Assembly: GCA_965218945.1 (NCBI GenBank)
Contig: OZ244718.1
Span: 3,005,700-3,069,699 of the forward strand
Direction: 5' to 3'
Source of the DNA: Dehalococcoidia bacterium
GTDB lineage: Bacteria > Chloroflexota > Dehalococcoidia > Lucifugimonadales > UBA2985
Length of the DNA stretch: 64,000 bases
Below are positions 38,924-64,000 of this stretch, piece by piece (the first letter of the stretch is position 1; the number at the start of each line of letters is the position of its first letter). The notes under the pieces are model-generated. The model searched no databases. It had not been told where the DNA came from and saw only the letters and a program-made list of their open reading frames with translations. The position numbers and the translations under genes are program-made.

Positions 38924-38925
38924 CG

Positions 38926-46068: not shown

Positions 46069-46112
46069 GTCAAAGATGCTGTGTTCCTGAGCTAACTATT
46101 GAGGGAGAGTCG

Positions 46113-49100
46113 ATGACCTCACCTACCGCCAATCAGACATCCGCATACCTCGAAGCCACATTCGGCCTTGGGCGCGACTGGACGTCGCAGGCAGGGCAGT
46201 CTGCAACGGTCTGGGAGACGCCTGCTTACCATCTTCTGTGGTTCAATGATGCAGCGAGCGATGTGGAACTACGGAGACTGTGGGAGGCACGGAAAGGCCG
46301 TCAAGCCTATCCGGTTGTCTTGCTGGCCCCATCAGACGACGCAAACAAACTGCGGGTAGCTGGGCCGCAGGATGCCCGGCCCATTCGGGAGTTGCCAGTC
46401 AGCCGAGTCCTCGACCTATTGGAGACGAGCCGCAGTCTGGCGGCCCGTGAAGCGGCATCGTTCCTGGCCAGGGAGTTCAGCCGTCTTGAGGAGGCAGTGG
46501 TTCCCGGGCTGCGGGTCAAGGACCTCCTCACCCCTCATTTCATGCGGGAGCGCCTGCGCCGGCCCATCAACGAGCAGCGATTGTCCGGCGCCGTCGATGG
46601 TATCGCTTCTATCGGCAGCATTGCATGGCGCTCACTGTTCCAAGGCATGGGCTACCAGGTGGAGCAGCTTCCCCAGCGCGGTTACTTGCTGAGGCACGAC
46701 AATGCGCCGGTTGCTGTGGTGCATCCTCACCGGGACGCCTCCCAGTTCAGCAGCCTCACGGACAACGGAGAACTGCCCGAGGGAATGGTGCTGGCGGACT
46801 GCGGGCAGCACGGGGCGCATTGGGGCATCCTGGCGGCGGAGGGCCGCTACCGGCTATTTCAGCGACGGCCTCCGGTAGGACCGGCGACGGGTCAGCACGT
46901 GGAGTTAGACCTAAGAGAGTTGGAGCGGAGCGACCGCTTCTATCTGGGTCTACTTGCCCCAGAGTCATTGAAGGAAAAGGGATGGCTGACCGATTGGGTC
47001 GGTGAGGCGAAGGACTTTGGTGAAGAGCTGCGGAAGGGGCTCGAGGAGCGGCTCATCAAGGACGCGCTGCCCAACATTGCGCGTGGGCTGGGTGAGTATC
47101 TTGAATCGCAGGGCGCAGATATGCGTGACCGGGAGCAACTCCGGCAGATAGAGGAGGCGGCGCTGACGCTGGTATTCCGGTTCATGTTCCTGTTGCACAC
47201 CGAGGCTCGCGGTTATCTCCCCATCGGCTCGGCGGCCTACCGGCCCCACAGCGCACGCCAGCTTGCCGAGGACTCCCGGCTGGCGCTGTCGTCGCTCAGC
47301 CGGAGGGCTACCCAGCGGTGGGACCGACTTCGGACACTGGTACGGATGGTGCGCACCGGAGATCGCTCGGCCGGAGTGCCCGCCTACAACGGCAGCCTCT
47401 TCGCTGCCGATGGCTTCCCTGGCAGCGCATTGCTGGAACGGGCCGAAATCGCCGACGTCCACCTCGCTCCTGCACTCGCGGCGATCGCCTACGAGACGGA
47501 CAAACCCGACGCTCCTGGACTGGATTACGCCGGCCTGCAAATCGGCCACCTGGGCGCCATCTATGAGGCCCTTCTCACCCTGAGGCTCACCCGCGCCCCC
47601 GAAGACCTGGCCTACGATTCCAGGCAGGATATGTTCCGCCCCGTCCGCGCCGGGGAGCAGCCGGAGGTGACCAGGGCTCAGCTCTACTACCAAGCCGAGA
47701 CGGGCGGACGAAAGGCCGGAGGCGTGTTCTACACGCGGCATGAGTTCGTGGATCACCTACTCAACCATTCGCTGCTGCCCGCCCTCGACGACCATCTGGC
47801 CGAGGTCAAGAAGGTCGCCCAGCAGGACTCCACCGAGGCGACGCGGCGGCTGTTCGACTTCTCGGTAGTGGACCCGGCGATGGGCAGCGCCCACTTCCTT
47901 ACGGCGGCCTTGGACATGATTGCTGACCGCATCGAGATCTTCCTCGCCGAAGTCGGCGGCCTGCCCGGTATTGCCCAGCTACTGAAGGAGTTGAGCCAGG
48001 ACAATGGGACGGTCTCTCAGCAGCCGGAGGACGGCGACCTGCTGCGGCGGCTCATACTCAAACGCTGCATCTACGGCGTAGACCTCTCCCCGATGGCGGT
48101 GGAGGTCGCTAACGTCACGCTCTGGCTGGCGTCCTTCGTTCCCGGCTTGGCCCTCTCCTATCTGGGCAGCAACCTCAAGTGCGGCGATGCCCTCATCGGC
48201 GTGGCCGATCCGTCCGTGGTCGGCGCCAGCGACAGCCCTCTCTTCACAGGCCAGACCGTGCGGAACGCCATGGACCACGCCGCCGCGCTCCAGCGGGAGC
48301 AGGCCGCTATCCCTGACCGGACGCCGGAAGAGGTCAAGCAGTCAGAGGAATTGGGAACCCGTCGGGAGGAAGCCACCGCAGGTCTGAGAGCGGCCTTCGA
48401 CCTGTGGGCGGCGGAACCACTTGGATTGACCGTCGAAAACAAGTTCATCGCGAAGAACGGAGATCTCCAAGAGCGTGTTGGTTCCCGTCATATACTGGAG
48501 AACAACGCGGCCGCTATTGTAGAGCGGCGTGAGACCCCAGATGTATCCGAAGTTGTAGCCAATGCCTCCGCCATCGCCGCCCAGTACCGCTTCTTCCACT
48601 GGCCCCTGGAGTTCCCCAACGTCTTCCACAGGGAGCATCCTGGCTTCGACGTGGTGGTCGGCAATCCACCGTGGAACGAGATAACCGTCGAGGAACTCGC
48701 CTTCTATGCGCTGCGCGAGCCTGGACTGCGGGGATGGTCGAATCTGGCTGACAGAAGAAGGCGCATCGCCGAGCTTGATGTGGAGAATCCTGGCTGGCGG
48801 GGGGAGCTTGAGGTACAGCAGGAACAAATGGCGACACTGCGGCAGTTCTTCTGGAAGAGCGGAGAGTATCACCTTTGGAGCGTGGGCGACCGGGACCTGT
48901 ACCAGCTCTTTTGCGAACGCTATGACCATTTAATCCGCCAGGAAGGGCGATTAGGTGTGGTGCTTCCTAGGAATGCATTCTTGGCGGAAGGGGCCAAACG
49001 ATTCAGACAGTGGCTCTTTACTCGCAACAGCCTGCGGCGTCTCGACCTCCTGCTAAATAACCGAAGTTGGGCGTTCACTATTCATCCGCAATATACGATT

Positions 49101-50138
49101 GCGCTGTTGACTGGCCAACGCCACACTCCAACCGGTCAGGCCGCCTTTCAAGTCACCGGTCCGTCAGCGAGCCTTGACGAGTTTCAGGCATCCGCTCAAG
49201 GCGATGGTATTACCATCCCTACGTCCTCCCTGGGTAGTGCCTATGTAGTGCCTCTCATGCCAAGCCAAGTGCACGCCGACGTGCTCGCCAAGCTGCGGCG
49301 CGGCATCCAGTTTGACGCTCTTCAAAATCCCGAAAGTCAAGAAATTTCAAGAGGGCGCGCTGCTGCGTCTCATGCAATTCCGTATAGGGAGCTAGATGAG
49401 ACGCAGCAGCGCGCCCTCTTCTCACATTCCCAAGGCGTTCCCGTATGGAAGGGTCGTTCGTTCAATCAGTACGCACCACATGGCAGTGAGCCAGCCGGAT
49501 ACGCCAAGTGGGATGAGGTCTTTTCCTTCGCACAGCAGAAGCGGATGCGATCTCCCGTCTTTAAGCGGATTTTTTCCAAAGAGGTCCTAGCCGATCCCAA
49601 GACCCATCCGATGAACCACTGCCGCATTGCCTTCCGAGACGTTACACGAAGCACTGACTCCCGCACCGTAAGAGCCTGCTTAGTGCCACCGCGAGTGCCT
49701 TTGACGAACAGCGCACCATACTTGGTGTTTGCGGGGTGGCTGCCACTATCTCAAGCGAGTTTACTTGGCGTACTGAACAGCACACCTTTTGACTGGCTGG
49801 CTCGCAGATATGTCGAGATTCATCTCAATTTCTATGTTCTCAACAGCCTTACCTTTCCTCCACCGGCCAACACTCCCTGGCAGCGCATCGGTAGGTTGGC
49901 TGCCCGATTGTCCTGCACGGACGAGCGGTTCGCTGAATTCGCTGCTGAGGTAGGGGTGGAGTGCGGGGTGTTGACCGAGGCTCGGCACAACGACATGCGG
50001 GCAGAGATAGATGCCCTCGTCGCACGCGCTTACGGTTTGACCGAGGACGAGTTGCGCTTCATCTTCACCGACTTCACGGAGAACGCGGTCAGCCCCGCCT
50101 ACCGGCGGCAGGTTCTGGAGAAGCTCGAGGGCCTGTAG
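46113..50138 (+). CDS. large (1341 aa) gamma-class N6-adenine DNA methyltransferase, Eco57I/PglX/type IIG-like
   Basis: Motif I VVDPAMGSAHFL, YGVDLSPMAVEVANVTLWL and motif IV VVVGNPPW. About 550-aa N-terminal region of unknown function. About 470-aa C-terminal TRD-like region (LNSTPFDWLARRYV..HLNFYVLNSL.FPPP). Confidence 0.8.
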   Translation: MTSPTANQTSAYLEATFGLGRDWTSQAGQSATVWETPAYHLLWFNDAASDVELRRLWEARKGRQAYPVVLLAPSDDANKLRVAGPQDARPIRELPVSRVLDLLETSRSLAAREAASFLAREFSRLEEAVVPGLRVKDLLTPHFMRERLRRPINEQRLSGAVDGIASIGSIAWRSLFQGMGYQVEQLPQRGYLLRHDNAPVAVVHPHRDASQFSSLTDNGELPEGMVLADCGQHGAHWGILAAEGRYRLFQRRPPVGPATGQHVELDLRELERSDRFYLGLLAPESLKEKGWLTDWVGEAKDFGEELRKGLEERLIKDALPNIARGLGEYLESQGADMRDREQLRQIEEAALTLVFRFMFLLHTEARGYLPIGSAAYRPHSARQLAEDSRLALSSLSRRATQRWDRLRTLVRMVRTGDRSAGVPAYNGSLFAADGFPGSALLERAEIADVHLAPALAAIAYETDKPDAPGLDYAGLQIGHLGAIYEALLTLRLTRAPEDLAYDSRQDMFRPVRAGEQPEVTRAQLYYQAETGGRKAGGVFYTRHEFVDHLLNHSLLPALDDHLAEVKKVAQQDSTEATRRLFDFSVVDPAMGSAHFLTAALDMIADRIEIFLAEVGGLPGIAQLLKELSQDNGTVSQQPEDGDLLRRLILKRCIYGVDLSPMAVEVANVTLWLASFVPGLALSYLGSNLKCGDALIGVADPSVVGASDSPLFTGQTVRNAMDHAAALQREQAAIPDRTPEEVKQSEELGTRREEATAGLRAAFDLWAAEPLGLTVENKFIAKNGDLQERVGSRHILENNAAAIVERRETPDVSEVVANASAIAAQYRFFHWPLEFPNVFHREHPGFDVVVGNPPWNEITVEELAFYALREPGLRGWSNLADRRRRIAELDVENPGWRGELEVQQEQMATLRQFFWKSGEYHLWSVGDRDLYQLFCERYDHLIRQEGRLGVVLPRNAFLAEGAKRFRQWLFTRNSLRRLDLLLNNRSWAFTIHPQYTIALLTGQRHTPTGQAAFQVTGPSASLDEFQASAQGDGITIPTSSLGSAYVVPLMPSQVHADVLAKLRRGIQFDALQNPESQEISRGRAAASHAIPYRELDETQQRALFSHSQGVPVWKGRSFNQYAPHGSEPAGYAKWDEVFSFAQQKRMRSPVFKRIFSKEVLADPKTHPMNHCRIAFRDVTRSTDSRTVRACLVPPRVPLTNSAPYLVFAGWLPLSQASLLGVLNSTPFDWLARRYVEIHLNFYVLNSLTFPPPANTPWQRIGRLAARLSCTDERFAEFAAEVGVECGVLTEARHNDMRAEIDALVARAYGLTEDELRFIFTDFTENAVSPAYRRQVLEKLEGL

Positions 50139-50163
50139 GGTGTAGCCGAGAGGCAAAACGATA

Positions 50164-50904
50164 GTGTTGCTAATGAGCGAGCTTGCAAGGGGAGTTGATC
50201 ACTCCATCGGCAACATACGGAGGAGCGTAAAGGCATACGTCTTCGATGGAGATGACTCGGCATATCGCGTTGTGGCCGTAGAGTTGAGGAAACTGCTTCT
50301 GGATACCAATGCAGCCGCATCATTTGCTCCTAAAGTCAAGAAAGGGAAGAATAAGCGGAGTCTCTTTGAATTGCATTACGGCAGTGGCAAGAACATACTT
50401 GTGCGATCCTTCATACCAGAGCAAGAGGACAAGGAGAGCCCCGAATCCAACGACTATGTCGCGGTTTCGCCAAACATTTACCCGAACCGAACCGACATAC
50501 TCTGGACAGCGACGCATGGCGGCAGGCTAGTTAACCTCATTGCTTGGTTGGATGAACCCTTCGTCCACAACAACAGTGGAGCCGTGATGAAGGTTCGAAC
50601 AGTCTTGCATTACATAGCGGGCAGAGAGGGAGCTCACATCATAAGCTCAAAGGGGAGAGATGAGAGAGAAGACGTCAGGATTGCGTTCTCTGCCAGTCCA
50701 GTCGCAACTGAAGACGTGCCGTCCCTTGAATTCGTCGAGCACTGGGAACAATTCGTCATAGATGCAGGGATGAGATTGCTCGATGCGAGGAGGGCAGCAA
50801 ACGGACATCCTCTAATAGCGCACGGCGTCTCTGTACCAGAGAGGCAGGTCACAACAACGAGACTTGAGAAGATTAGACCGGGTATACGAAAACTGAGGTC
50901 CTGA
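50164..50904 (+). CDS. hypothetical protein (no recognisable motif), embedded in the methyltransferase/helicase cluster
   Basis: 246-aa ORF, co-directional, with 26-nt gaps to both neighbours. Visibly AT-richer than its neighbours. Confidence 0.5.
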   Translation: MLLMSELARGVDHSIGNIRRSVKAYVFDGDDSAYRVVAVELRKLLLDTNAAASFAPKVKKGKNKRSLFELHYGSGKNILVRSFIPEQEDKESPESNDYVAVSPNIYPNRTDILWTATHGGRLVNLIAWLDEPFVHNNSGAVMKVRTVLHYIAGREGAHIISSKGRDEREDVRIAFSASPVATEDVPSLEFVEHWEQFVIDAGMRLLDARRAANGHPLIAHGVSVPERQVTTTRLEKIRPGIRKLRS

Positions 50905-50930
50905 GCAAGCAGCAGGGGGGAGGACTTTAC

Positions 50931-53900
50931 TTGACTCAAGGCTCCTATGAACTGGTGGACAACGTTGACTACGGCAACCACCAGCAAGCCTTGGCGTGGC
51001 TGGCGGAGCACTACGCGGGGCCGCTGAATGTGGCGACAGGTTACGTCGGCCTGGAGGGGCTGGACGCACTGGCCAGGATTGCGGCAGACCGAAGCGCGGG
51101 CGGACGGCTCCTCATCGGAGCCGCGCCGTCGTCAGAGGACTTGATGGGTCCGGTAGGAGAGACGGTAGCTGACCGCTTCGAGCAATCGGTGTTGGCCCTG
51201 CGCCGCCAGCGTGACTTCTCAGCGTTCCCTGCCGCACGGCGAGCCGTCCTTGAGCGGGTGACCCGCTTCTTCGAGTCCGACGATGTTGCGGTGCGGCGGT
51301 ACGTTCGGCGCTTCCTCCACGGCAAAGCCTACATTATCGGTGAGTTGAGCGAATCTGGGTCCCCGGTAGGACCAGGAACATCTCTGGTTAGTTCTGCCAA
51401 CCTTACGCAGGGCGGCCTTGTCGCCAATCTCGAACTGGGCATGGTGCATTACCAGCCCAACGTCGTTGGCATGGCATTGGGCTGGTACCAGCGGCTGTGG
51501 GACGACGCCCAGGACTTTCGCGAGGAACTGTTGGAGCTATTGCGTCCGCCGTCCCTGGAGAGCGATCCCCAGACTGTGTTCCTACGTGCGCTGCTCGAAC
51601 TCTACGAGGGTGAGTTGGACGACGATGTATCTCTCCCTGACCTGCACGCCCTCACCGCTTTCCAGCGGGACGGGTTGGCGCGAGCCAAGCGGATTCTGGA
51701 TCGCTACGGCGGCGTCCTCTACGCCGACGGCGTGGGCATGGGCAAGACGGAGATAGGCATCCAATTCATCAGGGAACACACTCGGGACCTCGGACAGCAC
51801 GTGTTGGTCATATCCCCGGCGCAGCTTCGCGACCGCCTCTGGCAGCAGCGCCTCAGCGAAGCGAACCTGCCAGGAACCGTGGTGTCCTACCAGCAGTTGG
51901 CCCAGGACCGGCAACTGTCCTCCGACGGAGGGCAAAGGGTCCTACCAGTGAACAAGGACGTGTACCGGTTTGTCATCATCGACGAAGCCCACGCGTACCG
52001 CAACGTAGACAACACCTGGTATGCGGCGCTGGACCGGCTTATGGGAGGAACGCCGAAGAAGTTGCTGCTCCTGACCGCGACCCCGGTCAACAACTCCCTA
52101 TGGGACCTGCACAACCTCTTCCTGCTGTTCGGCCGGCACGATGGGGCCTTCAACGCCGAACCACTGCGGATTCCCAGCCTGCGGAAGTTCTTCGCCGAGT
52201 CCGGCGCATCCAAATCCGAGAACCTATCGGAGGCAAAGCTGTTCCCGTTGATAGACGCCCTGACTGTCCGACGGGACCGGGCCTTCATCAAGGAGCGGTA
52301 TCGCAACGAGCGATTCGCCGACGGGACGTTGGTAAAGTTCCCTGTCCCGGAGTTGGAAGAGCGCCGCTATGACCTGGACAGCGCGCACCCCGGCATCGTG
52401 CAGTTCATCTACGACAGACTAGACCCTGAGAAGAGAGACAGCCTGAAGATGACGCGGTACCGACCGTCAGCCTATAGAGTGGACAGGGAAGGCGAGTCGG
52501 CGTCGGAAGAGGCGCTGGCAGGGCTGATGCAATCGCAGCTGCTGAAGCGCTTCGAGTCGTCCTGGTACTCGGCCCTGCAGACGGTGACCAGGATGAGGAA
52601 CGGCAACGACGTGATGCTTCGGGTCATCTCGGAGCGGGGAGTCGTGCCGCCGCCGGACGTGATCAGAGACCTTGTCGGCGATGTAGGCCAAGACGACACT
52701 TTCCTTGCCACCGACATCATCGACGACGCGCTGGCTGGGTCGGAGGGTGGCGTCCCCACCGACATGTTCAACGACCAGTTCTTGGCCGACTTGGAGAATG
52801 ACAGGGACATTCTCGCGGAAATGGCGGAGCTGTTGGCGAGATTGGAGAACGGCACGGACCCCAAGCTGGACGCCCTCCAAGACGTAATGACCGCAACGCC
52901 GTCGAAAAAGGTCGCCGTCTTCACCGCATTCCAGGACACGGCAGCCTACCTAAAGCAGTGCATAGAACGTCAACCGGCCCTGCTGGGGGGTCGCGAATGG
53001 ACTGTGGCCGTCGGCTCAGACACCAGCGCCGACGCCCGCACCAGGGAACTCGAACGATTCTGCCCGGAGTCGGTGACCGGCGAGCAGGGCTTCGTCCCGG
53101 AGGGGGGTGAGGTCGATGTCATCCTTAGCACCGACATCCTTTCCGAGGGGCAGAACTTACAGCAGGCCCAGGCTGTGCTGTCTTTCGACATGCCCTGGAA
53201 TCCGCAGCGAGTGGTGCAGCGCAACGGTCGCATCATCCGCCTGCGCAGCCCCCACGACACAGCCTACCTCTATACCTTGCTTCCCAAGCAGGGCGACCTG
53301 GATCGGCTGCTAAAGTTGGAGGCCAAGCTCCAGTCAAAGATCATGGCGGCGAACGCCTCGGTGGGCATGGAAACCCCGGTACTGGCCGACGTGGAGACGG
53401 AATCCCAGGTGTATGCTGACCTGACCACCTTCGCCGAACGTCTCGCCAGTGGGGACGCCACTCTGCTGGACGAGCGGGAGAGCGGCGGGGAGACCGGCTC
53501 GGCATTCGCCGGCGAGCTCTTCCGCTCATATCTCCGCCGCGCTGCGGAGGAGGGCGAGATTGCCAGGCTCAGGGACCTGCCTTGGGGCATAGGCGCCGCT
53601 TTCGTGCAGCGTTTGCCGACACTGGCCGAACCGGCGGTATTCTTCGCCTGTCGAACGCGCAGAGATGAGCGCTACTGGCGCATCGTGGGGCAATCTGGAG
53701 AGATCCTGCACAGGGAAGACCTGCCGATGTTGCGGCTGATAGACCCGCACGAGCAGCCCGGCTGTCCCCTCCCCGACAGTCTGGACTTGGAGCGTCTGTT
53801 TACCATAGCCGCCGCCGACATGTGCGCGGTGCACAATGCGCTGTTAGACCCAGAAACCCGATTCGCATCCTTGCCCGCCAGCCAGCGTTGGGCGCTGGAC

Positions 53901-54173
53901 GTACTGCGCTCGCCGGATGCCCCCGCCGGGGAGGAGTACGACGAGGCTGACCAGGCCCTCTCAGTCGGCAGGAACAACTTGGTGCGGCGCGAGCTATCGG
54001 AGTTGCGCCGGGAGTACGAAGGAGGGGGTATGAGCGCGACAGATGGCGCTCGGCGCATCGTCGAAGTCGTAGCGCGGTTCGGCCTGCGCCCGGTCGAGGC
54101 CCCGCAGGCCCCCGAACCCATCACCGAGGATGATCTGGGAGTGGTTTGCTATCAGGTGGTGTTGCCGGCGTGA
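50931..54173 (+). CDS. PLD(HKD)-nuclease / SNF2-family helicase fusion
   Basis: HKD motif FLHGKAYIIG ... SLVSSANLTQGG. SNF2 motifs YADGVGMGKTE, FVIIDEAHAYRN and LLLTATPVNNSLWDL. Helicase-C motifs LSTDILSEGQNLQ and VQRNGRIIRLRS. TTG start behind a GGGGGGAGGA RBS. Confidence 0.85.
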   Translation: MTQGSYELVDNVDYGNHQQALAWLAEHYAGPLNVATGYVGLEGLDALARIAADRSAGGRLLIGAAPSSEDLMGPVGETVADRFEQSVLALRRQRDFSAFPAARRAVLERVTRFFESDDVAVRRYVRRFLHGKAYIIGELSESGSPVGPGTSLVSSANLTQGGLVANLELGMVHYQPNVVGMALGWYQRLWDDAQDFREELLELLRPPSLESDPQTVFLRALLELYEGELDDDVSLPDLHALTAFQRDGLARAKRILDRYGGVLYADGVGMGKTEIGIQFIREHTRDLGQHVLVISPAQLRDRLWQQRLSEANLPGTVVSYQQLAQDRQLSSDGGQRVLPVNKDVYRFVIIDEAHAYRNVDNTWYAALDRLMGGTPKKLLLLTATPVNNSLWDLHNLFLLFGRHDGAFNAEPLRIPSLRKFFAESGASKSENLSEAKLFPLIDALTVRRDRAFIKERYRNERFADGTLVKFPVPELEERRYDLDSAHPGIVQFIYDRLDPEKRDSLKMTRYRPSAYRVDREGESASEEALAGLMQSQLLKRFESSWYSALQTVTRMRNGNDVMLRVISERGVVPPPDVIRDLVGDVGQDDTFLATDIIDDALAGSEGGVPTDMFNDQFLADLENDRDILAEMAELLARLENGTDPKLDALQDVMTATPSKKVAVFTAFQDTAAYLKQCIERQPALLGGREWTVAVGSDTSADARTRELERFCPESVTGEQGFVPEGGEVDVILSTDILSEGQNLQQAQAVLSFDMPWNPQRVVQRNGRIIRLRSPHDTAYLYTLLPKQGDLDRLLKLEAKLQSKIMAANASVGMETPVLADVETESQVYADLTTFAERLASGDATLLDERESGGETGSAFAGELFRSYLRRAAEEGEIARLRDLPWGIGAAFVQRLPTLAEPAVFFACRTRRDERYWRIVGQSGEILHREDLPMLRLIDPHEQPGCPLPDSLDLERLFTIAAADMCAVHNALLDPETRFASLPASQRWALDVLRSPDAPAGEEYDEADQALSVGRNNLVRRELSELRREYEGGGMSATDGARRIVEVVARFGLRPVEAPQAPEPITEDDLGVVCYQVVLPA

Positions 54174-55271: not shown

Positions 55272-55694
55272 CTTCGTCTCTCTATTGCTTTCGTGGCAGG
55301 CTGTCCCAATTCCAAGTATGGCCACGACAAGGGTACCACTCGCTCACCCCACGAGTTTTTCGATACAGGGTGTGACACCTCGAACGCCCTGTCAAAAGCA
55401 AGCCTTGTCGGGGGACAAGCCTAGGTCCAGCCACAGGCCTCCCTTACGCGCCACCGATGAATCGAAGATCAGCGCTGACCTGATATGGTCACCCTGCGCT
55501 CTGCCGTTCCGAAGCACCTCGACTGGTTCTAATCAAGGCTTTCCCCTCGCTCCTACCACAAAACCGCACCCAAAACAAGGGCTTGCAATGCCTTACCTTC
55601 GACGAATTTCCCGTTTAAAATGGGATGTTGGGCTATTGCTGGCAGGAGCAGTCGATTGATCGTCGCGGAGCCAAGAACACAACCATTGAACGGC

Positions 55695-57671
55695 ATGACA
55701 CAGGCCGGACCGGGCCTCGAGATGGCGGTCCGGGACTACGTGCGCGCCTACGCGTGGCTGCATGGACGGAGGAAGACAGCCGAGGACCTCGGCGTGTCCC
55801 GCCACACCTTGTGGCGATTCCTCGAACGGGGCCACGCAGGGCGAGCCGTGCCCTCCGCCGTCCTGAGCTCCGTCGGCGGGAGCGTGCGGGCGATTGAAGC
55901 GGCCACGTACGAGGTCATCATCGACCTGGAGGGCCTGCGGCCGGACCCTGCCCTGCGTTCCCTACGCCAGGGTCTTGAGGAGGCGCTCCTGCTGCTGTGC
56001 GCCACGCCCCTGGCCACCGTGGACGAGTTGTCCCGCTTCGGGCGACTTCCAACCTCCACGCTCCGCGACCGGTTGAAGAAGCTGACCGAGCGGGGCCTCG
56101 TGGACTCCGTGGCGCACCATCTGGGCGTCCTGGGGGCTCGCCCGCAGCGCCGGTACTTCCCCACCGAGAAAGGCGTCACCGTAGCTGGCGCAGCCACGAA
56201 GGGCCGAGCGCACATGCTGCAATCCTACCCGGTGTCCAAGCAGTGGTTCCGGCTGCTGGCCGAGCGGCTGGACGCCGTGGCCGTGCTCCACCGCGTCGCC
56301 GCCATGACCGCCGACGCAGACCCGCACAACGATCCCGTGCGCGTGGACCACCATCGCAACGGCCCCTACGACATGCTGCTCACCCTCTCCGGGGGGCGCA
56401 CCATTGGCCTGATTCGCCAGGGACCGGCGCTGCCCACCTCCAGACTCCGCTACCGCCTCAGGAGCATCGAGCGGCTGGACAGCAGCGACAGCCCCTTCGT
56501 CACCCTGGTGCTGACCCATGCAGACCAGGCCACCCGCAGGGCCATCCGCTCCCTGGGCGACCCGTCGGAGCATCGGAGGACGTTCGTTGCGACGGAAGGG
56601 GAGCTTCTTGCCGGAGACCACACGGGAGTCGTCTGGCAGCAGTGCGGGAGCGGTCTGGGCGAGGCCGTGCGCATCGACGCCGACGCATCCCTGGTGGGTA
56701 TCCTGGCCTTGGCGGAGCGCCTGCTGGACTCCTCCTACTCCTTCCTGGGCAAAAGCCCGAAGCCAAATCCCAGCGACCTCTATCCCTCCGGCGTGCAGGC
56801 CGCCATGCCGGAACCCACTGAGCAGCTCACATCAACCCTCCCTGTGCAGCTGACCCGCGCCGAGAAGGACGCCCTCGACCTGCTGGCCGCCTGGCCCCTG
56901 TGCACCCGTGAGCAGCTGGCGGGACTGATGGGCGGCGTCACCCTGCGCCGGGTGAACCAGGTGCTTCGTTCTCTGACCCAGCACGGCCTAGTGCGAGCGG
57001 ACGAGCCTCTGCACATGCTCACCGATGAGGGGCTGACTTACCTTGCCCGCAGGGACCGGGCCGCCGTGGGGCTGACCCTCGACCGGTGGAGCGCCGAGCC
57101 TCTCTACCTGAACGCCGACATCTACGCCGGGACCGCCGTGCGAGCCCTGGCCTCTCAGATGCGCCACCACGCCGGCGTCATCGACTTCGCCGCCGCCCTG
57201 TCGACCGAGGTCGCCCGCTCCCCGGACCACGACCTGTTCGACCTGCTGCCCACGTCCCGTTCCAGCATCGGCTACCGCTACGACTGGACTACCTACGTCA
57301 TCCATCCCGACGCCTCCTTCACCCTGGAATACAAAGGCCGTTGGCGTCCCTACCTGCTGGAGTTCGAGAGACGGGCCACGACACCGAAGCGCGCCCGTGT
57401 CCGCCTGAAGTCCTATCGACGCTACTTCCAGAGCGGCTGGGCTGAGCGAGACCACGAGGGACGCCTGCCCCGGGTGCTCTTCGTCTTCGAGTCCCCGGAC
57501 AACGAGAATACCTTCCTGGATGTCGCCGACACGGTGGAGGGAGTCCCCATCATCACGTCCAACACAAAGACCCTTGCGAAACGGGGCATCCTGGGCGACG
57601 CATGGATACTTCCGCCCCCGCATTCCCTCGACAGGAGGCCGTTATCCCTGTTGCATCAGGTGCAACAATGA
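55695..57671 (+). CDS. replication-relaxation family protein with two MarR-like wHTH segments
   Basis: wHTH-like LSRFGRLPTSTLRDRLKKLTERGLV and TREQLAGLMGGVTLRRVNQVLRSLTQHGLV. C-terminal IHPDASF...YLLEFERRATT, typical of Replic_Relax proteins. Confidence 0.6.
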   Translation: MTQAGPGLEMAVRDYVRAYAWLHGRRKTAEDLGVSRHTLWRFLERGHAGRAVPSAVLSSVGGSVRAIEAATYEVIIDLEGLRPDPALRSLRQGLEEALLLLCATPLATVDELSRFGRLPTSTLRDRLKKLTERGLVDSVAHHLGVLGARPQRRYFPTEKGVTVAGAATKGRAHMLQSYPVSKQWFRLLAERLDAVAVLHRVAAMTADADPHNDPVRVDHHRNGPYDMLLTLSGGRTIGLIRQGPALPTSRLRYRLRSIERLDSSDSPFVTLVLTHADQATRRAIRSLGDPSEHRRTFVATEGELLAGDHTGVVWQQCGSGLGEAVRIDADASLVGILALAERLLDSSYSFLGKSPKPNPSDLYPSGVQAAMPEPTEQLTSTLPVQLTRAEKDALDLLAAWPLCTREQLAGLMGGVTLRRVNQVLRSLTQHGLVRADEPLHMLTDEGLTYLARRDRAAVGLTLDRWSAEPLYLNADIYAGTAVRALASQMRHHAGVIDFAAALSTEVARSPDHDLFDLLPTSRSSIGYRYDWTTYVIHPDASFTLEYKGRWRPYLLEFERRATTPKRARVRLKSYRRYFQSGWAERDHEGRLPRVLFVFESPDNENTFLDVADTVEGVPIITSNTKTLAKRGILGDAWILPPPHSLDRRPLSLLHQVQQ

Positions 57672-58058
57672 CCGCCCCAGCCGTTCCGACCACTTCCTGT
57701 AGGGGGTGTCCCAGCATGGCTGCTGGGACCATTGTCCTCCCACTTGCAACCGCTCTTGCACCTTCCGCCCTCCCGATTACAAATTGGTGCAGAATTGACA
57801 CGTCAGGGGAGGCCCCGTCCACCACACATTCCTACCGCCTCTCAGCTTTGGCTCGTAGCTACATCCGCCTCACCAACGACCCAACGAACATCTCCTCGAG
57901 GGTCACAGAAGCATGTTGCATTACCGGCGCCAGTCCGTTCCTACGACTTCCTATAGGGGGACAGAGGGGCATTCCTCTACTTACGGTGTTAGCCCCCAAC
58001 AGGTCGAAACGTGACAATTGTTGCAGCGCCCGGCGGGGGGTTGAAGATCGGTTGCCGG

Positions 58059-58088
58059 TTGGCATATAGTAAGACACTGTGCTATAAT
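58059..58088 (+). promoter_or_regulatory. sigma70-type promoter (extended -10) for the RHH gene
   Basis: TTGGCA, an 18-nt spacer, then TGCTATAAT (TGn-extended -10, TATAAT at 58083-58088). Confidence 0.6.
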
Positions 58089-58107
58089 AGCTATGAAGAG
58101 AGAGGCC

Positions 58108-58341
58108 ATGTCCCCAAAGTTATCTAGGAACACCGAGACGATCACCTTCTCCTTGCCGCCGGAATTGGCCCAACATCTGCGGCAGGTGGTCAAGGAGGAG
58201 GAGCGCACGGTGAGCGAGCTGCTCCGGGAGGCGATCCGCCTGTACATGGATGAGAGGGAGTGGCGCAGACGGGAGCGGCTGGAACGGCTGCGCTCCCGCA
58301 CGACTACCGACCAGGAAGAGACAGGGAGGAGGGACCGATGA
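58108..58341 (+). CDS. ribbon-helix-helix (CopG/Arc-like) protein
   Basis: TITFSLPPELAQHLRQVVKEEERTVSELLREAIRLYM gives a beta-strand plus two helices. ATG at 58108 behind a GAGAGAGG RBS. The stop overlaps a relic recombinase ATG (ATGA). Confidence 0.7.
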   Translation: MSPKLSRNTETITFSLPPELAQHLRQVVKEEERTVSELLREAIRLYMDEREWRRRERLERLRSRTTTDQEETGRRDR

Positions 58342-58382
58342 ACGACCGACTCGAATCTAATGCCGACAGTCCTCTACGCCAG
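58338..58382 (+). pseudogene. relic 5' end of a serine recombinase gene (first ~15 codons only)
   Basis: ATGAACGACCGACTCGAATCTAATGCCGACAGTCCTCTACGCCAG aligns with the first 44 nt of the intact recombinase at 59843. Homology stops just before the codons for the catalytic VSS. Confidence 0.6.
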
Positions 58383-58518
58383 ATAGCCTTTAGGTCAGGC
58401 CCAGCGAAGGGAATCGAATTGGACACCGGGATCCAACCTACCGTTTCATTCGCCTTGTCCCCCGTGGCTGGATTGGTCTGGCGAGATCGGCTACAACAAA
58501 GCCGGAGGCCATAGTGAG

Positions 58519-59550
58519 ATGAATGATGCGTTTCTATTAGGAGCAGGCTTTTCTAAAGCAATCTGCAAAACGATGCCGACAATGACAGAATTGTATGCGC
58601 TCTTAGAACCGCTCATCGACGTCGCAGACGGTTTCAGCAGAGATGCCTACGAATACGCATCTGGTAATGTTGAGACTTTACTCTCCTACTACGCGATTCC
58701 AAGCCCGCATGACGACCCGGTCGAGTGCTTGCGAAAGAGGCGAGTAACCACTCTGTTGGAGATTGGGATAGGCGCGCTACTACAAGCTCGCGAACAGGAG
58801 GGAGCCGGATTGGGACTAAATCCAGCTGGAGCCCAGTTGATCCTGAAATGGCACGAGCGAAGAAGCCACGTCTTGACAACGAACTATGACACCCTGGTAG
58901 AGAGAATCGCTTCTGAGACGGTTTTCACAACAAGTGGGGGAAACAGCTACCCCCTCCGTTACGAAGATCTATATCCGATACCCATTAGCCCCGCCTTAAC
59001 CCGAGACGGAGGTATGGTGTTGGGTTCTTCTTATCCGGACACTTTCACTCTTTATAAACTTCACGGTTCAACTGCTTGGTTTAAGTCGCCCACCGAATCA
59101 ATTTTCGACCCGATCTACGGACTATCGCATGAGCAGTTGGGAAATCCTCGTTACCAGAAGTTCATTGCTGACAAGGGCCGCTTCATAGTCCCACCGGTGT
59201 ACGACAAGTCATCGTTGCTGAACCATGAGAGCATCCGCAACCTGTGGCTGCAGGCCAAGAATCAGGCTCTGCAAAAAGCGGACAACCTGTACATAATCGG
59301 CTATTCGCTTCCAGAAACAGACGCAGCTATGCAAATCCTTTTGTGGGAAGGAACACGAACTGGCCAGAATACAAATGGTAGCAAGAAGGCTCTTTACGTC
59401 GTTGATTTGGATGAAGGCGTTGGTCAGCATTACATAGAAAAGCTGGGCAAATACTATGACGTGAACGTTTGTTACGCAGGCAGCCAAAATGCGTTTGATG
59501 ATTTTGTTGGGGAATACGTAAATAAGGGGGGAGATGATCAGGTAAGGTAG
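58519..59550 (+). CDS. SIR2-like (SIR2_2 family) protein
   Basis: N-terminal FLLGAGFS, LTTNYDTLVE and YKLHGS motifs. AT-richer than its surroundings. No partner gene such as TIR or HerA is adjacent. Confidence 0.75.
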   Translation: MNDAFLLGAGFSKAICKTMPTMTELYALLEPLIDVADGFSRDAYEYASGNVETLLSYYAIPSPHDDPVECLRKRRVTTLLEIGIGALLQAREQEGAGLGLNPAGAQLILKWHERRSHVLTTNYDTLVERIASETVFTTSGGNSYPLRYEDLYPIPISPALTRDGGMVLGSSYPDTFTLYKLHGSTAWFKSPTESIFDPIYGLSHEQLGNPRYQKFIADKGRFIVPPVYDKSSLLNHESIRNLWLQAKNQALQKADNLYIIGYSLPETDAAMQILLWEGTRTGQNTNGSKKALYVVDLDEGVGQHYIEKLGKYYDVNVCYAGSQNAFDDFVGEYVNKGGDDQVR

Positions 59551-59669
59551 GCGTTTCCCTACTGATCATTCCGAGGCGTCCCGCGATGATTTCTAGCGGA
59601 TAGGACTTATGCAGCTGGCTATGGGATTTCAATCGATAGAGATGTGTGGCCACCACCGGACGGATATAG

Positions 59670-59843
59670 TCGCTCAGGACATTAACCTTGGCCAACTCCG
59701 ATTTCAACACCGCCCTCAAGTTGCTCCAAGCCCGGGCCATCCGCCTGTTTATGGAGGAACGGGAGTGGCGCAGACGGGAGCGGCTGGAACGGCTGCGCTC
59801 CCGCCCGACTACTGACCAGGATGACACAGGGAGGAGAGACTGA
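59670..59843 (+). pseudogene. N-terminally truncated RHH gene paralogue
   Basis: In-frame translation ...TALKLLQARAIRLFMEEREWRRRERLERLRSRPTTDQDDTGRRD* parallels the C-terminal half of the 58108 RHH protein. It has no start codon or beta-strand region. Confidence 0.55.
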
Positions 59844-61474
59844 TGAATGACCGACTCGATCTGATACCGGCGGCCCTCTACGCCAGGGTTTCCAGCGACC
59901 GCCAGGACGTGGACCTGTCCGTGGCCGCCCAGCTGCGGGCGCTCAGGGACTACGCAGAGAAGAACGGCTACCACGTCGCCCGCGAGTACGTGGACGAGGC
60001 CGAGAGCGGGCGCATCGCCGACCGGCCCCAGTTCCAGAAGATGCTGGACGAGGCCGCTAAGCCCGAGGCTCCCTTCAAGGAGATCTTGGTCTGGAAGTTC
60101 AGCCGCTTCACCAGGAAGCGGGAGCACGCCGTCGCCTTCAAGTCCATGCTCCGCAGGCGGGGCATTCGCGTGGTCTCCATCACCGAGCATGCCGACGATT
60201 CCCCCACCGGCAAGCTCATGGAGGCCATCATCGAGTCGGTGGACGAATTCTACAGCGAGAATCTGGCGCAGGAAGTTGTCAGGGGGATGCGTGAGTCTGC
60301 TTCTCGGGGCTTCTGGGTCGCCAGCAGGGTTCCCTACGGCTTCAGCAAGGTCATGGTACAGGACGGGGCCAAGAAGCGCCCCAGCCTCGAACCCGATCCT
60401 GCCACCGCGCCCGTTGTGGAGCGCATCTTCGGGATGGCCGAGGCGGGCAGGGGAATCCTGAACATCACCCGCACCCTCAACGACGAGGGCATCGCCAACC
60501 CCACCGGCAGGCTCTGGTCCAAGAACGGCATCCACATCATCCTCAAGAACGAGGCTTACACCGGAACATTGGTCTGGGGCGTCGACGCCAAGGACAAGGC
60601 AGACCCGGTGCGGGTGGAGAAGGCATTCCCCGCCATCGTCTCCAAGGCAAAGTTCCGCCGGGTGAACCGGAAGCTGCGCTCCCGCGCTCCAAAGCGGAGC
60701 CACCCCCGCCGGGTCGGGAGCTCCTACCTCCTCAGCGGCTTGATCAAGTGCAAAGTGTGCAACCGGGCGCTCTCCGGCCAGGACGCCAAGAGTGGCAGGT
60801 TCTCCTACTACGTCTGCCAGTCGGTGTTGAAGCGTGGCAGCGGGGCCTGCGACGCCCCCAGACTCAACGCCCGGCGCTTCGAGAAGTTGGTGGTCGGCAA
60901 GATTCGGGAGAACGTGCTCACCGAGTCCAACATCCAGGAGTTGGTGAAGCTGGTGGACGAGGAGATGGACGGGGTGGCCAAGGAGCAGAGGCAGAAGCTG
61001 GAGACCATTGAGGCGGAGTTGGTGGACGTGAAGCGCAAGTTGGGACGGCTCTACGACCTGGCGGAGACCACCGACCTGGACGTCGACGACTTCAAGCCCA
61101 GGATACGCGAGCACCGGGAGCGGCAGGAGAAACTGGAGGCTACGGCGGAGGAGGCGAGGGCGATGCTCTCCCAGCGCAGAGAGGTCCTGGACGACGTGGA
61201 GACCATCACGGCCTACGCCCTAGACATGAGCATGTTCCTGAACGAGAGCGAGTTGACGGAGCGCAGGGCCTTCATCGAGAGCTTCGTGAAGGAGATCGTC
61301 GTCATGCCCGACAACGCCGTGGTGCGCTACACGATTCCGATGCCCGACGACAGCCCCATACCCGGGAGAGACGTCGAGGAGATGGCGCTGAACGGCTCGG
61401 TTCTGTCTACCGTCAAGTTTGGTGGGCCAAAGCATACCGAACTGCGAACTTTTCGGTGGGTCGTGTCAATATAG
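59843..61474 (+). CDS. large serine recombinase
   Basis: Catalytic ALYARVSSDRQ, a resolvase N-domain, a recombinase domain, a zinc-ribbon (CKVCNRALSG ... YYVCQ ... GACD) and a coiled-coil region. Confidence 0.9.
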   Translation: MNDRLDLIPAALYARVSSDRQDVDLSVAAQLRALRDYAEKNGYHVAREYVDEAESGRIADRPQFQKMLDEAAKPEAPFKEILVWKFSRFTRKREHAVAFKSMLRRRGIRVVSITEHADDSPTGKLMEAIIESVDEFYSENLAQEVVRGMRESASRGFWVASRVPYGFSKVMVQDGAKKRPSLEPDPATAPVVERIFGMAEAGRGILNITRTLNDEGIANPTGRLWSKNGIHIILKNEAYTGTLVWGVDAKDKADPVRVEKAFPAIVSKAKFRRVNRKLRSRAPKRSHPRRVGSSYLLSGLIKCKVCNRALSGQDAKSGRFSYYVCQSVLKRGSGACDAPRLNARRFEKLVVGKIRENVLTESNIQELVKLVDEEMDGVAKEQRQKLETIEAELVDVKRKLGRLYDLAETTDLDVDDFKPRIREHRERQEKLEATAEEARAMLSQRREVLDDVETITAYALDMSMFLNESELTERRAFIESFVKEIVVMPDNAVVRYTIPMPDDSPIPGRDVEEMALNGSVLSTVKFGGPKHTELRTFRWVVSI

Positions 61475-61702: not shown

Positions 61703-64000
61703 TTACCTAAGGTCATCTGTATCTCTCGCAGCTACGACATCGACAGCGGCCAGCAATACAACGTCGTTTGGATGGCGCAACGTTGTGCATCGGGCAGCAA
61801 GCTCGTCTTCAGCGCACTCAAGTAGCAGTTTCAACAATTCCCGTCGCTCTTGTGGGCTTGTCGCTGGAATATCCCCAGGGGTCATTGCTGGTTCGGTGAA
61901 CATGCTGGCGAAAAACTGTGGATTGACATGGGGAACGTTTGAGCCGGTTGGAAGGAAGATTGGTACTAGTGCCTCCCACCTTGGGATACCCTGATCGTTC
62001 TGCCAGCGGATTCGAACGAGGCCTAATGTGCCGTCCTCTCTTCCTTGGATACAGGCATATTCTCCCTTGAACTCCGGTGACTTGGCTTTCTCAATCAGAT
62101 CTGTGAAGAATACACTAGCAAAATCCATTGGAACTAAATTGGGGACTCGCACTGCCAATTGCCTGTCAATTGTGACGCGAACGACAGTTGCGCGTTCAGG
62201 AAACTCAGAATGTCTCCCACGCATTTCCGCTGGCAATTCCAATTCAAGTACCCGCCCACCGTACATTCTGGACCGGATCGAAATGCCAACCATTGGAAGA
62301 ATGCCTTCCAGAAAAGATAACACCTCTTCCTGGCCAAATGAGTAGAGCGCTGCCCCTGCGTCTGGATCGTAACCCTCGACTTTCGAGAATAGCGCTTCTT
62401 GTTGAGACTTAGCTTCCATGGCTCGCATTATAGCCTCGTCAACTTCTTGTTCAGAGTGGTGCAGGTCCATGGTCTTGTTCCTAGCCAAAATCGAAGCAAC
62501 ATCCACGCGCTCTAGCAATTCCCCAATGATCTCCGTCTCGATGCCCTCTACGTATTCGGCACTAACGCTTGCCATGTCATTTGCTATGTTGTAAACGCGG
62601 TCAAGCATCATGCTCAGGGTCATGTTATCAAACCCATCTCTGGCCATCAGATTGAAGACTATTACTCGTTCCTGTTGTCCGTATCGATATAGCCGGCCCG
62701 CACGCTGCACGAGGCGGCTAGGATTCCACGGCAGGTCGTAGTTCACGAGAATGTGGCAGTTCTCGTGCAAGTTAATGCCTTCACCTCCAGCTTCCGTAGA
62801 GATCATGAACTGACAACTATCGTTAAATCTGGCGATGTTTTCCCTCTTCACACTCAGTGACATGCTGCCATTGATCTGACTAATGCCTGACTTCGGATAA
62901 CGAATCCTGAGTGCTTCTGCGAGATATTCCTGAGTAGCTCGATATTCTGTAAATATGAGTAGCCGCTTGCCTTCCCTCCGAAGAGGATCAACAATATGCT
63001 CTAGGAATTCCTTTAACTTGAGGTCCTCGCTTCTCACCTGTTTCGCCAGAGCGATCAGGTCTGCGATTTGGTGTTGCTCGTCATCAAAGAACGGATTAGC
63101 TCCTGCAAAGGAACCTGCAATCTGGTCGGCCAAGTCTTCTAAATCATCCTGTTGGTCAGAGCCTTCCTCAACAATCTCATTTATTTCTCCAAATTCAGTC
63201 TCAGTTATGCGATTCGTGCTGGCGTCTCCTAGCAGACGTTCTCTTCTTCGCTCTAAGGCTTTCTCGATTGCGGCGATGCTTGAAGATGCGAGCTTGCGAT
63301 ACGTGGTCATCACGAATCCTATGGCGCGTCCTGTAGTGCCTCCTTCTGCCGCAGCGCTATAGCCAAGCCTTAGATAATCCTGAAGGTACCTGTCGAATTG
63401 CAGAGCCTCGTCCGACATTGGAACGTCCACTAGACTAGTGTCCTGACCACGAAAAATGAAATTGCCATTGGCATCCGTAACTAGGCTTTTGCGATTACGT
63501 AGGACAACCTCTGCCACGACAGAAGGATCGGAGAAGACATACTTAAAGCGCCTAGCCAGATCGGGTCGCAGTAACACTAGCAAATTGACGAACTGAGGTG
63601 TTCTACCCTGGTGTGGTGTTCCAGTGAGAAAGAAAAGTGAGTCAGGCTGCTTTTGCAGCCTTTCCGCCAACTGGTATCGTTGAGTCACGGGTTGATGTTC
63701 AATCTTGCTCAGGTGATGTGCTTCGTCGAAAACAATGACGTCCCAGTCTCCAGACTCTGAGAAGATGGGCCCGTGCACATCTGACTTGGCACGGTCTATG
63801 GAGGCGATTACCCTGTCGAAGCCTGCCCAGTGAGAGGGCTGATGGATGCTGAAGTCTATACCGTAGATTCGATAGTCCTCATTGAATTTATACTTCATTT
63901 CATCCTGCCATTGGCGAACAACCCCGGCGGGACAGACTATCAGTACCCGCCGACCTTGGCGGCGGCGCTTCATAGCTGTAAGCAGAAGTCCGACCTCTAT
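61703..64000 (-). CDS. SNF2-family helicase (N-terminus beyond window edge) with uncharacterised ~250-aa C-terminal domain
   Basis: VIVFDEAHHL (DEAH), FFLTGTPHQG, and helicase-C NLHENCHILVNYDLPWNPSRLVQRAGRLYRYGQ. The frame remains open upstream of the track Met (…IEVGLLLTAMKRRR), so the gene continues past 64000. Confidence 0.8.
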   Translation of the reverse strand: MEVGLLLTAMKRRRQGRRVLIVCPAGVVRQWQDEMKYKFNEDYRIYGIDFSIHQPSHWAGFDRVIASIDRAKSDVHGPIFSESGDWDVIVFDEAHHLSKIEHQPVTQRYQLAERLQKQPDSLFFLTGTPHQGRTPQFVNLLVLLRPDLARRFKYVFSDPSVVAEVVLRNRKSLVTDANGNFIFRGQDTSLVDVPMSDEALQFDRYLQDYLRLGYSAAAEGGTTGRAIGFVMTTYRKLASSSIAAIEKALERRRERLLGDASTNRITETEFGEINEIVEEGSDQQDDLEDLADQIAGSFAGANPFFDDEQHQIADLIALAKQVRSEDLKLKEFLEHIVDPLRREGKRLLIFTEYRATQEYLAEALRIRYPKSGISQINGSMSLSVKRENIARFNDSCQFMISTEAGGEGINLHENCHILVNYDLPWNPSRLVQRAGRLYRYGQQERVIVFNLMARDGFDNMTLSMMLDRVYNIANDMASVSAEYVEGIETEIIGELLERVDVASILARNKTMDLHHSEQEVDEAIMRAMEAKSQQEALFSKVEGYDPDAGAALYSFGQEEVLSFLEGILPMVGISIRSRMYGGRVLELELPAEMRGRHSEFPERATVVRVTIDRQLAVRVPNLVPMDFASVFFTDLIEKAKSPEFKGEYACIQGREDGTLGLVRIRWQNDQGIPRWEALVPIFLPTGSNVPHVNPQFFASMFTEPAMTPGDIPATSPQERRELLKLLLECAEDELAARCTTLRHPNDVVLLAAVDVVAARDTDDLR

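Follow-up and report, generated by a model that had tools for sequence, protein, structure and literature searches.

The SIR2 locus and its flanking repeats

We analyzed a 64,000-nucleotide (nt) stretch of the genome of a Dehalococcoidia bacterium (contig OZ244718.1, positions 3,005,700 to 3,069,699; here called the window, with positions counted from its first letter). In this window, a SIR2-like gene lies between a ribbon-helix-helix (RHH) regulator gene and a large serine recombinase (LSR) gene. The genes belong to a conserved module of an integrative element (55544 to 61427, plus strand), which we delimited by blastn against 80 related loci and which consists of a Replic_Relax gene, the RHH gene, and the LSR gene, interrupted by a SIR2-bearing insert. 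The features described in the module and its insert are all on the plus strand.

The first gene of the module encodes a 683-amino-acid (aa) Replic_Relax/winged-helix protein (55620 to 57671; PF13814, E 7.5e-7, with further winged helix-turn-helix matches). It is a putative replication/relaxation gene and is kept in about 45 loci. Downstream lies a sigma-70-like promoter, TTGGCA-18-TGcTATAAT (58059 to 58088), which agrees with the consensus at 11 of 12 positions, has an extended −10 element, and overlaps a TATAG..CTATA palindrome. It is followed by an intact RHH gene of the CopG type (58093 to 58341; PF01402, E 6.5e-7), the stop codon of which overlaps the next start (ATGA). The listed ATG at 58093 is specific to the window, and the start conserved in the family is probably the ATG at 58108 (MSPKLSRN...). 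Next comes the 5′ stub of a recombinase gene (58339 to 58382), which reads into the insert as a 58-aa open reading frame (ORF; 58339 to 58514) and ends 4 nt before the SIR2 ATG. The insert itself (58383 to 59734; 1,352 nt) carries a 343-aa SIR2_2 gene (58519 to 59550) and the degenerate remains, interrupted by stops and a frameshift, of a PF21716 "addiction module antidote" (HigA-like) gene (59591 to 59734). An intact 543-aa LSR gene (59843 to 61474) follows. According to Pfam, its product has all three LSR domains, namely, the Resolvase catalytic domain (E 1.5e-32), Recombinase (E 5.9e-21), and the zinc ribbon (Zn_ribbon_recom, E 4.2e-12).

We found that the insert is bracketed by a direct repeat with an offset of 1,505 nt. 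Copy A (58230 to 58382) comprises the 3′ third of the RHH gene and the first 14 recombinase codons, and copy B (59735 to 59886) comprises an RHH 3′ remnant (59735 to 59843) and the true recombinase start. The homology between 58234 to 58382 and 59739 to 59886 reported in the initial annotation is therefore borne out, and pairwise alignment together with repeat finding extended it to the bounds given here. In a global alignment, the copies are identical in 134 of 153 columns (87.6%), and their sole indel is 1 nt, an extra A near 58355 in copy A. An exact 44-nt core, GGGAGTGGCGCAGACGGGAGCGGCTGGAACGGCTGCGCTCCCGC, is present at 58256 to 58299 and again at 59761 to 59804. The similarity is not confined to the RERLERLR-coding stretch, the low-complexity sequence that might have accounted for it, and reaches far past that stretch on both sides. 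As had been described, the homology ends on the right after ...CTCTACGCCAG (LYAR|), directly before the codons for the catalytic Ser. Since repeat finding detected no other repeat longer than 34 nt between 55 and 64 kb, a chance origin of this pair is excluded.

The initial annotation had read copy A as an intact RHH gene plus about 15 recombinase codons and copy B as a truncated RHH gene plus an intact recombinase gene. We confirmed the intact RHH gene and counted 14 codons in copy A, but the stub is frameshifted and reads on to 58514. For copy B, both genes are as described (the last ~36 codons of the RHH gene are retained), but what lies directly to the left is not more RHH sequence but the PF21716-type antidote relic. 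Its homology enters the first bases of copy B, and a chimeric 51-aa ORF (59688 to 59843) runs into the RHH remnant.

The gene between the two copies had been called SIR2-like and AT rich. It is an intact SIR2_2 gene with a GC content of about 50%, compared with 60 to 66% in its flanks. The protein matches PF13289 at 29.4 bits (cutoff, 24.5; E 9.5e-7) and matches 13 PADLOC SIR2 models (best E, 1e-12). Its TTNYD and KLHGS motifs are intact, and N122, D124, and H182 are invariant in 24 homologues. An AlphaFold2 model (pLDDT, 84; pTM, 0.86) gave 8sub, 8uae, and 8j4u as its top Foldseek matches (E down to 5e-9; TM score, ~0.5), followed by the SIR2 of SPARSA. The profile match is likewise to the SIR2 of SIR2-HerA, and the catalytic motifs align with those of the solved structure. 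SIR2-HerA (Nezha) is thus the best match in both profile and structure, and its SIR2 is of similar size. However, the identity is only 15 to 19%, and we found no HerA gene among the neighbors of the window SIR2 or of the homologues examined. Based on these matches and the predicted fold, SIR2 is most likely an NAD+-consuming defense effector carried as cargo.

Elsewhere, SIR2 homologues are either solitary among restriction systems and transposases or placed behind unrelated large proteins (568 to 720 aa). We dropped the idea of one conserved partner family upstream of SIR2. A relationship was seen only between L082_691 and L087_708, and the proteins directly upstream of SIR2 in L082 (720 aa) and L084 (568 aa) match neither each other nor those two. 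A scan of JGI metagenomes with the SIR2 alignment gave no relatives.

Related elements with and without SIR2

We found 359 relatives of the recombinase in species-representative genomes. All are in Dehalococcoidia/Chloroflexota metagenome-assembled genomes, often in several copies per genome. We compared the loci of the best 80, which are 80 to 95% identical in amino acid sequence. In blastn searches of these loci with window positions 52 to 64 kb, the module appeared as two blocks, 55544 to 58382 and 59739 to ~61428. About 45 to 50 of the 80 loci match the first block, all 80 match from ~59867 to ~61428, and coverage falls to a single locus over the insert. Outside these bounds, nothing is common to the window and the loci, except in L020, which has the PLD-SNF2 gene upstream at 81% identity and a canonical junction without SIR2. 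The bounds are those of the conserved stretch; for the complete element, we found no left end.

In the canonical loci, the RHH stop overlaps the recombinase start in the alignment, and the junction is single copy. Window sequence up to 58382 runs to locus position ~10044, and window sequence from 59739 begins at locus position ~9897. Copy A maps to 9893 to 10044. Because both repeat copies fall on this one junction, the arrangement in the window is derived and carries a 1,352-nt insert. By a conservative count, the RHH gene ends at the recombinase start in at least 47 of the 80 loci, none of which has SIR2. We found SIR2 in this position in two other loci, L089 and L038.

L089 comes from an independent assembly of another sample, and we reached it through the sole protein homologue of the stub ORF among 5.8 billion proteins. 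It is colinear with window positions 55541 to 61427 at 90.4% identity and holds both repeats, SIR2, and the antidote relic. It is flanked differently from the window copy, by a type I restriction system to its left and, to its right, by a second element in convergent orientation. We found that identity between the window and L089 is uneven: 88% in the Replic_Relax gene, 82% in the intergenic region, and 89 to 91% in the recombinase gene, but 97 to 99% in a tract from ~58107 to 59990, noncoding parts included. Since the interior is 97 to 99% identical and the backbone is 82 to 91% identical, the SIR2-bearing allele has moved between diverged backbones by homologous recombination or has overwritten them. 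Within the tract, identity dips locally inside both repeats, and the repeats are prone to conversion. The two copies in L089 are 83% alike, compared with 87.6% in the window. The tail of window copy A appears to have been converted toward the copy B type, whereas L089 and L038 keep the other tail type.

L038 has an RHH gene and the same left junction between stub and SIR2, with derived stub substitutions in common with the window and a SIR2 gene that is 92% identical in nucleotide sequence. Upstream of this same stub, the RHH genes of the window and L038 are of different allelic types (77% nucleotide identity). The right junction of L038 also differs. Its recombinase gene begins 36 nt after SIR2, and the recombinase leader comes from a recombinase subfamily of ~70% identity. 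The RHH-SIR2 architecture is thus found in three lineages.

We resolved the insert into three parts, 58383 to 58482, a SIR2 module (58483 to 59590), and the antidote relic (59591 to 59734). The SIR2 module (58483 to 59589) also occurs at 86% identity in L081, in a nonelement context that has no recombinase and where it adjoins McrBC and transposase genes. We considered whether the leftmost part is a tRNA remnant, but no tRNA was found in it. We also dropped the possibility that it is the 3′ end of a native partner gene. Its only protein homologue is the L089 copy, and the partners in other SIR2 contexts do not match the window.

Over 46 nt, the antidote relic has 80% nucleotide identity with the gene that precedes the recombinase gene in L048 and L061, and the L048 gene matches PF21716 with an E value of 1e-19. 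A tblastn comparison aligned ANPEFNTVLKVTRALGFRL with ANSDFNTALKLLQARAIRL and gave an additional upstream high-scoring segment pair in another frame, making two consecutive segments. Copy B therefore joins the tail of an RHH gene to a piece of another type of regulator gene. The short sequences TGCTCC and CCGGG, which the RHH and antidote genes have in common, occur where the two are joined. In six loci (L045, L047, L048, L052, L061, and L073; ~9630 to 9930), a PF21716 gene stands in for RHH, so the regulator position is itself a swappable module.

Cargo other than SIR2 also occurs at the junction. L021 and L026 carry a 225-aa membrane protein, and L029 carries a 772-aa P-loop protein. A 40-codon recombinase stub precedes a 439-aa protein without known function in L044, a 42-codon stub precedes a PD-(D/E)XK/REase-ARP nuclease in L055 and L079, and in L057 and L062 a solute-binding protein is fused to a stub of ~16 codons. 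Overall, the recombinase 5′ stubs beside unrelated cargo are ~4, 14, 16, 40, 42, 103, and 167 codons long. A second cargo slot lies upstream of the RHH promoter and holds a DUF4238 gene in L038 and L043. In L041 (9654 to 10010), an insert of ~240 nt lies between two copies of the RHH-tail/recombinase-start junction, which are of different allelic tail types. In this independent case, a small membrane ORF with two helices runs on the opposite strand of the insert.

The 44-nt core needs separate comment. We rejected it as a mark of a recent crossover or conversion between copies A and B, as it is identical in many family members of other genomes and across both RHH allelic types, which otherwise are ~25% diverged. 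The corresponding RHH 3′ coding block, EWRRRERLERLRSR (window positions 58256 to 58299 and 59761 to 59804; ~9920 to 9963 in canonical loci), is kept at the nucleotide level across the two types, synonymous sites included. It could form a hairpin, CGGGAGCGGCTG-GAA-CGGCTGCGCTCCCG. We dropped this hairpin as a structured RNA or recombination site because its fold energy is no better than that of shuffled sequences (z, −0.5 to −1.1).

Origin and expression of the arrangement

The initial annotation had offered two explanations for the repeats, recombination or nesting of two related RHH-recombinase elements with SIR2 captured as cargo and insertion of a cassette at the junction. Our results favor the former. 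We think it probable that this is a mosaic element in which SIR2 cargo sits between RHH and the recombinase and in which the repeats are the scars of joining two element lineages. The canonical junction is single copy, the copies in L089 are only 83% alike, the left edge of copy B comes from another regulator type, and the RHH allelic types of the window and L038 differ. Canonical junctions of other genomes reach 94.6% identity with copy B. The model is further supported by the recombinase stubs of various lengths beside unrelated cargo, by the junction copies of two tail types around the L041 insert, and by the occurrence of neighboring elements in the family, as seen in the L027 tandem and in the unrecombined attachment-site configuration of the window and 10 other loci.

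According to this model, the left lineage would have given the intact RHH gene and the dead 14-codon recombinase stub, and the right lineage would have given the dead RHH 3′ remnant, fused to the antidote relic, and the live recombinase gene. Related elements would have piled up side by side, and deletions and illegitimate joins would have stripped redundant recombinase and regulator copies, halting at genes that needed to stay intact. The order of intact RHH, stub, cargo, remnant, and intact recombinase would then follow because deletions cannot enter the one functional RHH gene and the one functional recombinase gene. Once formed, the SIR2-bearing allele spread, as the pattern of sequence identity shows, from one diverged backbone to another through homologous recombination in the RHH and recombinase flanks. 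The repeats could permit occasional loss of the cassette by recombination. We regard this route of accretion and deletion as plausible.

Several observations weigh against the mosaic model. The route requires at least two or three separate events, and no intermediate, such as a tandem whose downstream element carries SIR2 as cargo, was seen among the inspected loci, which were only the best 80 of the 359. No source was found for 58383 to 58482, a segment common only to L038 and L089. The surplus divergence of copy A is largely within the decaying stub. When only the RHH-coding part is counted from the alignment, copies A and B are 89% identical, and copy B and L002 are ~92% identical. Because the excess in copy A sits mostly in the stub, the comparison of identities does not by itself decide against an old in situ duplication followed by gene conversion. 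Finally, the stub ends cluster loosely at codons ~14 to 17 and ~40 to 42, with two different cargos each, which hints at some preference for site.

A one-step insertion with a local duplication is the most serious competitor, although we judge it unlikely. Either a replication template switch into foreign DNA that resumed ~150 nt upstream or a Campbell-type integration, by homologous recombination, of a small circle with one junction copy would have produced the repeats, and the copies would later have diverged or been converted by other family members. The geometry fits such an event exactly, as the left copy ends at one point, the insert follows, and the right copy starts upstream of that point. 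L041 displays the same geometry, TGCTCC and CCGGG are common to RHH and the antidote relic at the right join, and conversion does take place, as the patchy divergence of both repeats in a comparison of the window with L089 shows. However, the copies are only 83 to 88% alike while the interior of the insert is 97 to 99% conserved between instances. The L041 copies are of different tail allelic types, the antidote relic beside copy B needs an extra event anyway, and no circle or recombinase-free excision mechanism is evident.

The placement of SIR2 also bears on how it might be expressed. The −10 element and palindrome upstream of RHH are conserved across family members, and we found no promoter-like or terminator-like site on the plus strand from RHH to the recombinase. 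It is plausible that RHH, the stub ORF, SIR2, and the recombinase gene are in one transcript from the conserved RHH promoter, which is probably autoregulated by RHH, and SIR2 would then be transcribed from that promoter. Without an indel, the recombinase frame of the stub would be closed by a stop right at the junction (AGA|TAG). A +1 insertion at CTCGAATC in the window and L089 and another +1 change at CTCCGACGCC in L038 each yield an open 58-aa frame that stops 4 nt short of the SIR2 ATG, and ribosomes reading through this ORF may be brought to the SIR2 start. One could see in this a hint of selection for coupled translation of the stub ORF and SIR2, although two events are weak evidence.

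The initial annotation had further suggested that RHH and SIR2 resemble an antitoxin/toxin-like pair. A selected pair of this kind, or a dedicated regulator/effector pair in which RHH controls a toxic NADase, would fit the position of SIR2 after RHH in one apparent transcription unit behind a strong promoter. It would also fit the two different frameshifting indels, which in separate lineages keep an ORF open between the RHH stop and a point 4 nt short of the SIR2 start, and the persistence of the RHH-SIR2 architecture in three lineages. In contrast, RHH is conserved as a partner to the recombinase in elements without SIR2 (the junctions in at least 47 of the 80 loci), and the SIR2 homologues examined, on eight other contigs, have no RHH or recombinase neighbor. 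RHH matched no PADLOC model, and its Antitox_RHH score was under the cutoff. In addition, known defense SIR2 proteins are kept inactive by sensor partners or by their oligomeric state, not by antitoxins. We concluded that a dedicated pair is quite improbable.

Programmed, site-specific capture of cargo at the RHH/recombinase junction, by the recombinase or another enzyme in the manner of an integron, seems to us more doubtful still. Several unrelated cargos lie between RHH and the recombinase, and the clustering of stub ends and the nucleotide-conserved, hairpin-forming block in the RHH 3′ region might be taken as traces of a capture site. However, the left boundaries vary (in the RHH tail or at recombinase codon 4, 14, ~16, ~40, 103, or 167), as do the right ones, and we saw no common motif at the cargo ends across loci. 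The variable end points and the lack of a common motif argue against site-specific capture, and the cassette insertion proposed initially is not supported on the same grounds, as other cargo insertions end elsewhere. The hairpin folds no better than shuffled sequence. The putative attachment site of the family lies at the recombinase 3′ end by tRNA genes, not at the 5′ end, and a crossover by a serine recombinase would not yield 150-nt repeats. The insert does not resemble an integron cassette, given the serine recombinase, the nonconserved cargo boundaries, and an inverted repeat of only 5 bp downstream of SIR2. Nor do the repeats resemble a target site duplication, being ~150 nt long and 83 to 88% alike around an insert that has neither a transposase nor terminal inverted repeats.

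We give almost no credence to an assembly artifact, in which reads of two element copies were misjoined at a common repeat; the element is multicopy within genomes and its repeats invite misassembly, but the same colinear architecture is present in the independent L089 assembly from another sample, the left junction recurs in L038, and the copies differ at 19 of 153 positions and so are not collapsible repeats.

The recombinase family, its attachment site, and its cargo

To place the element, we examined where the conserved sequence of its relatives ends on the right. We counted right ends by reading the alignments together with ARAGORN predictions, as automated classification was too crude. 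In 26 loci, the conserved sequence ends at ...TTTGGTGG (TGGTGG), and a tRNA gene on the opposite strand starts at precisely this point. Eight tRNA species occur at these junctions (Val-TAC, Val-GAC, Ala-TGC, Ala-CGC, Lys-TTT, Lys-CTT, Ile-GAT, and Met-CAT). Because the conserved sequence stops exactly at tRNA genes, the attachment site should overlap the 3′ end of the recombinase gene, and at least eight different tRNA genes appear to receive elements of this family at their CCA ends. We rejected an attachment site at the recombinase 5′ end, with the stub as an attachment half-site, as the tRNA junctions of the family are at the 3′ end. The tRNA-junction loci (~11578) are L007, L010, L011, L014 to L016, L021 to L024, L028, L029, L032, L033, L037, L039, L041, L043, L057, L062, L064, L070, L072, L076, L077, and L080. 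The last recombinase codons overlap the 3′ end of the tRNA gene on the opposite strand, and the C terminus of the protein varies with the flank (528 to 543 aa).

The window and 10 other loci have a conserved 45-nt extension after the recombinase instead of chromosomal sequence. In the window, this extension follows ...GTCAAGTTTGGTGG, its motif is unique, and together they mark a putative attachment-site region that overlaps the recombinase 3′ end (61393 to 61466). The best interpretation of the extension is an unrecombined partner arm of the attachment site, which would make this an unrecombined configuration. ARAGORN predicted no tRNA in the window, and Rfam gave no matches between 54 and 64 kb. 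L087 has the 45-nt motif by itself (6241 to 6290), with no recombinase, at 170 nt downstream from a distant homologue of SIR2. Cargo follows, including a further SIR2_2 protein (580 aa), and the motif could mark either a deletion relic or the left end of an integrated element.

Elements of this family also lie next to each other. L027 is a direct tandem of two elements. In about 26 loci (~11560 to 13400; L002, L003, L004, L008, L012, L025, L030, L034 to L036, L040, L046, L049, L050, L058 to L061, L063, L065 to L069, L073, and L075), a second element stands tail to tail with the first, with a recombinase gene that is ~70% identical in nucleotide sequence, its own RHH gene, and sometimes its own Replic_Relax gene. 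In these loci, the recombinase 3′ ends meet in a near-palindrome, GTCAAGTTTGGTGGGCTGGACTTGAC.

The window is chromosomal, with dnaA, obg, and the nuo operon followed by a defense island from ~37.3 kb. The island (37376 to 54173) holds a type II CBASS system (E1-E2, cyclase, and patatin effector), a second ThiF-like gene, AbiEi/AbiEii, a 1,341-aa type IIG/DrmMI-like enzyme, and a PLD-SNF2 helicase. Directly to the right of the attachment-site region is a SNF2-type helicase gene on the minus strand (61703 to 63973), the best PADLOC matches of which are BrxHI and DrmD. It aligns to the profiles only from about position 130, and an N-terminal truncation or a continuation past the end of the window is possible.

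We looked for the element outside these genomes. In phage and plasmid collections, we found only LSRs that are ~30% identical to the window recombinase, and scans of IMG/VR for the recombinase and SIR2 gave no relatives, so the element is not evidently phage borne. Exact-sequence lookups of the window SIR2 and recombinase returned no record. The family is one of multicopy LSR elements that appear to target the CCA ends of tRNA genes, with swappable regulators and two cargo slots. As far as we found, it has not been described in the literature, and it is a more interesting lead than the SIR2 insert.

Modular exchange beside a serine recombinase gene is known from hybrid transposons of the Tn3/Tn21 type, in which it is site specific at res, next to the resolvase gene. 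The element in the window resembles these hybrids in the place of exchange and in having a conserved 5′ coding block as the crossover region. Unlike in those transposons, the evidence here points to homologous and illegitimate recombination, and the enzyme is a large serine integrase, not a resolvase.

The SIR2 insert is a known phenomenon in kind, namely, defense cargo in a mobile-element hotspot with recombination scars. Defense genes are carried as cargo in hotspots of P2/P4, integrative and conjugative elements, Tn7-like elements, and pipolins (PMC11551731, PMC8649781, PMC10201445). As in those hotspots, the element in the window has a single defense-type gene at a recurrent position, the cargo varies by member, and its GC content is below that of the backbone. 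In contrast, the slot in the window is neither between conserved structural genes nor at a transposon end but inside the regulator-recombinase operon, where recombinase 5′ stubs and regulator 3′ remnants mark it.

In their organization, the elements recall the tycheposons of Prochlorococcus, which combine integration and replication modules with variable cargo, use the 3′ ends of several tRNA genes, accumulate side by side, and leave scattered integrase fragments (10.1101/2020.12.28.424599). Nearly all tycheposons have tyrosine recombinases (910 of 937 elements; 10.1101/2020.12.28.424599), whereas the family described here is all LSR, has Replic_Relax and an RHH or antidote-type regulator, and is hosted by Dehalococcoidia.

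We tentatively raise one broader possibility, to which we attach a low probability. The regulator-recombinase junction of this LSR family could be a general expression slot, in which cargo is driven by the RHH promoter, translation is fed by the stub, and cassettes are passed between element copies by homologous recombination. This reading would fit the recurrence of different cargos at the junction, the independent frame-restoring indels of the stub ORF, and a cassette interior that is much younger than its backbones. If true, the slot would be a homology-driven counterpart of the integron platform, shuffling defense genes in sponge-associated Dehalococcoidia.

The locus offers an example, resolved at the level of sequence, of a mobile element that appears to have gained a defense gene and kept it expressed inside its own regulator-recombinase operon, with scars that date and order the events. 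It also suggests that apparent duplications around cargo can be fused remnants of sister elements rather than signatures of insertion. The wider context of the LSR family may outweigh the SIR2 finding itself. Large serine recombinases of this kind are of practical interest for genome engineering, and the family is a natural system for cargo turnover in uncultured symbionts.

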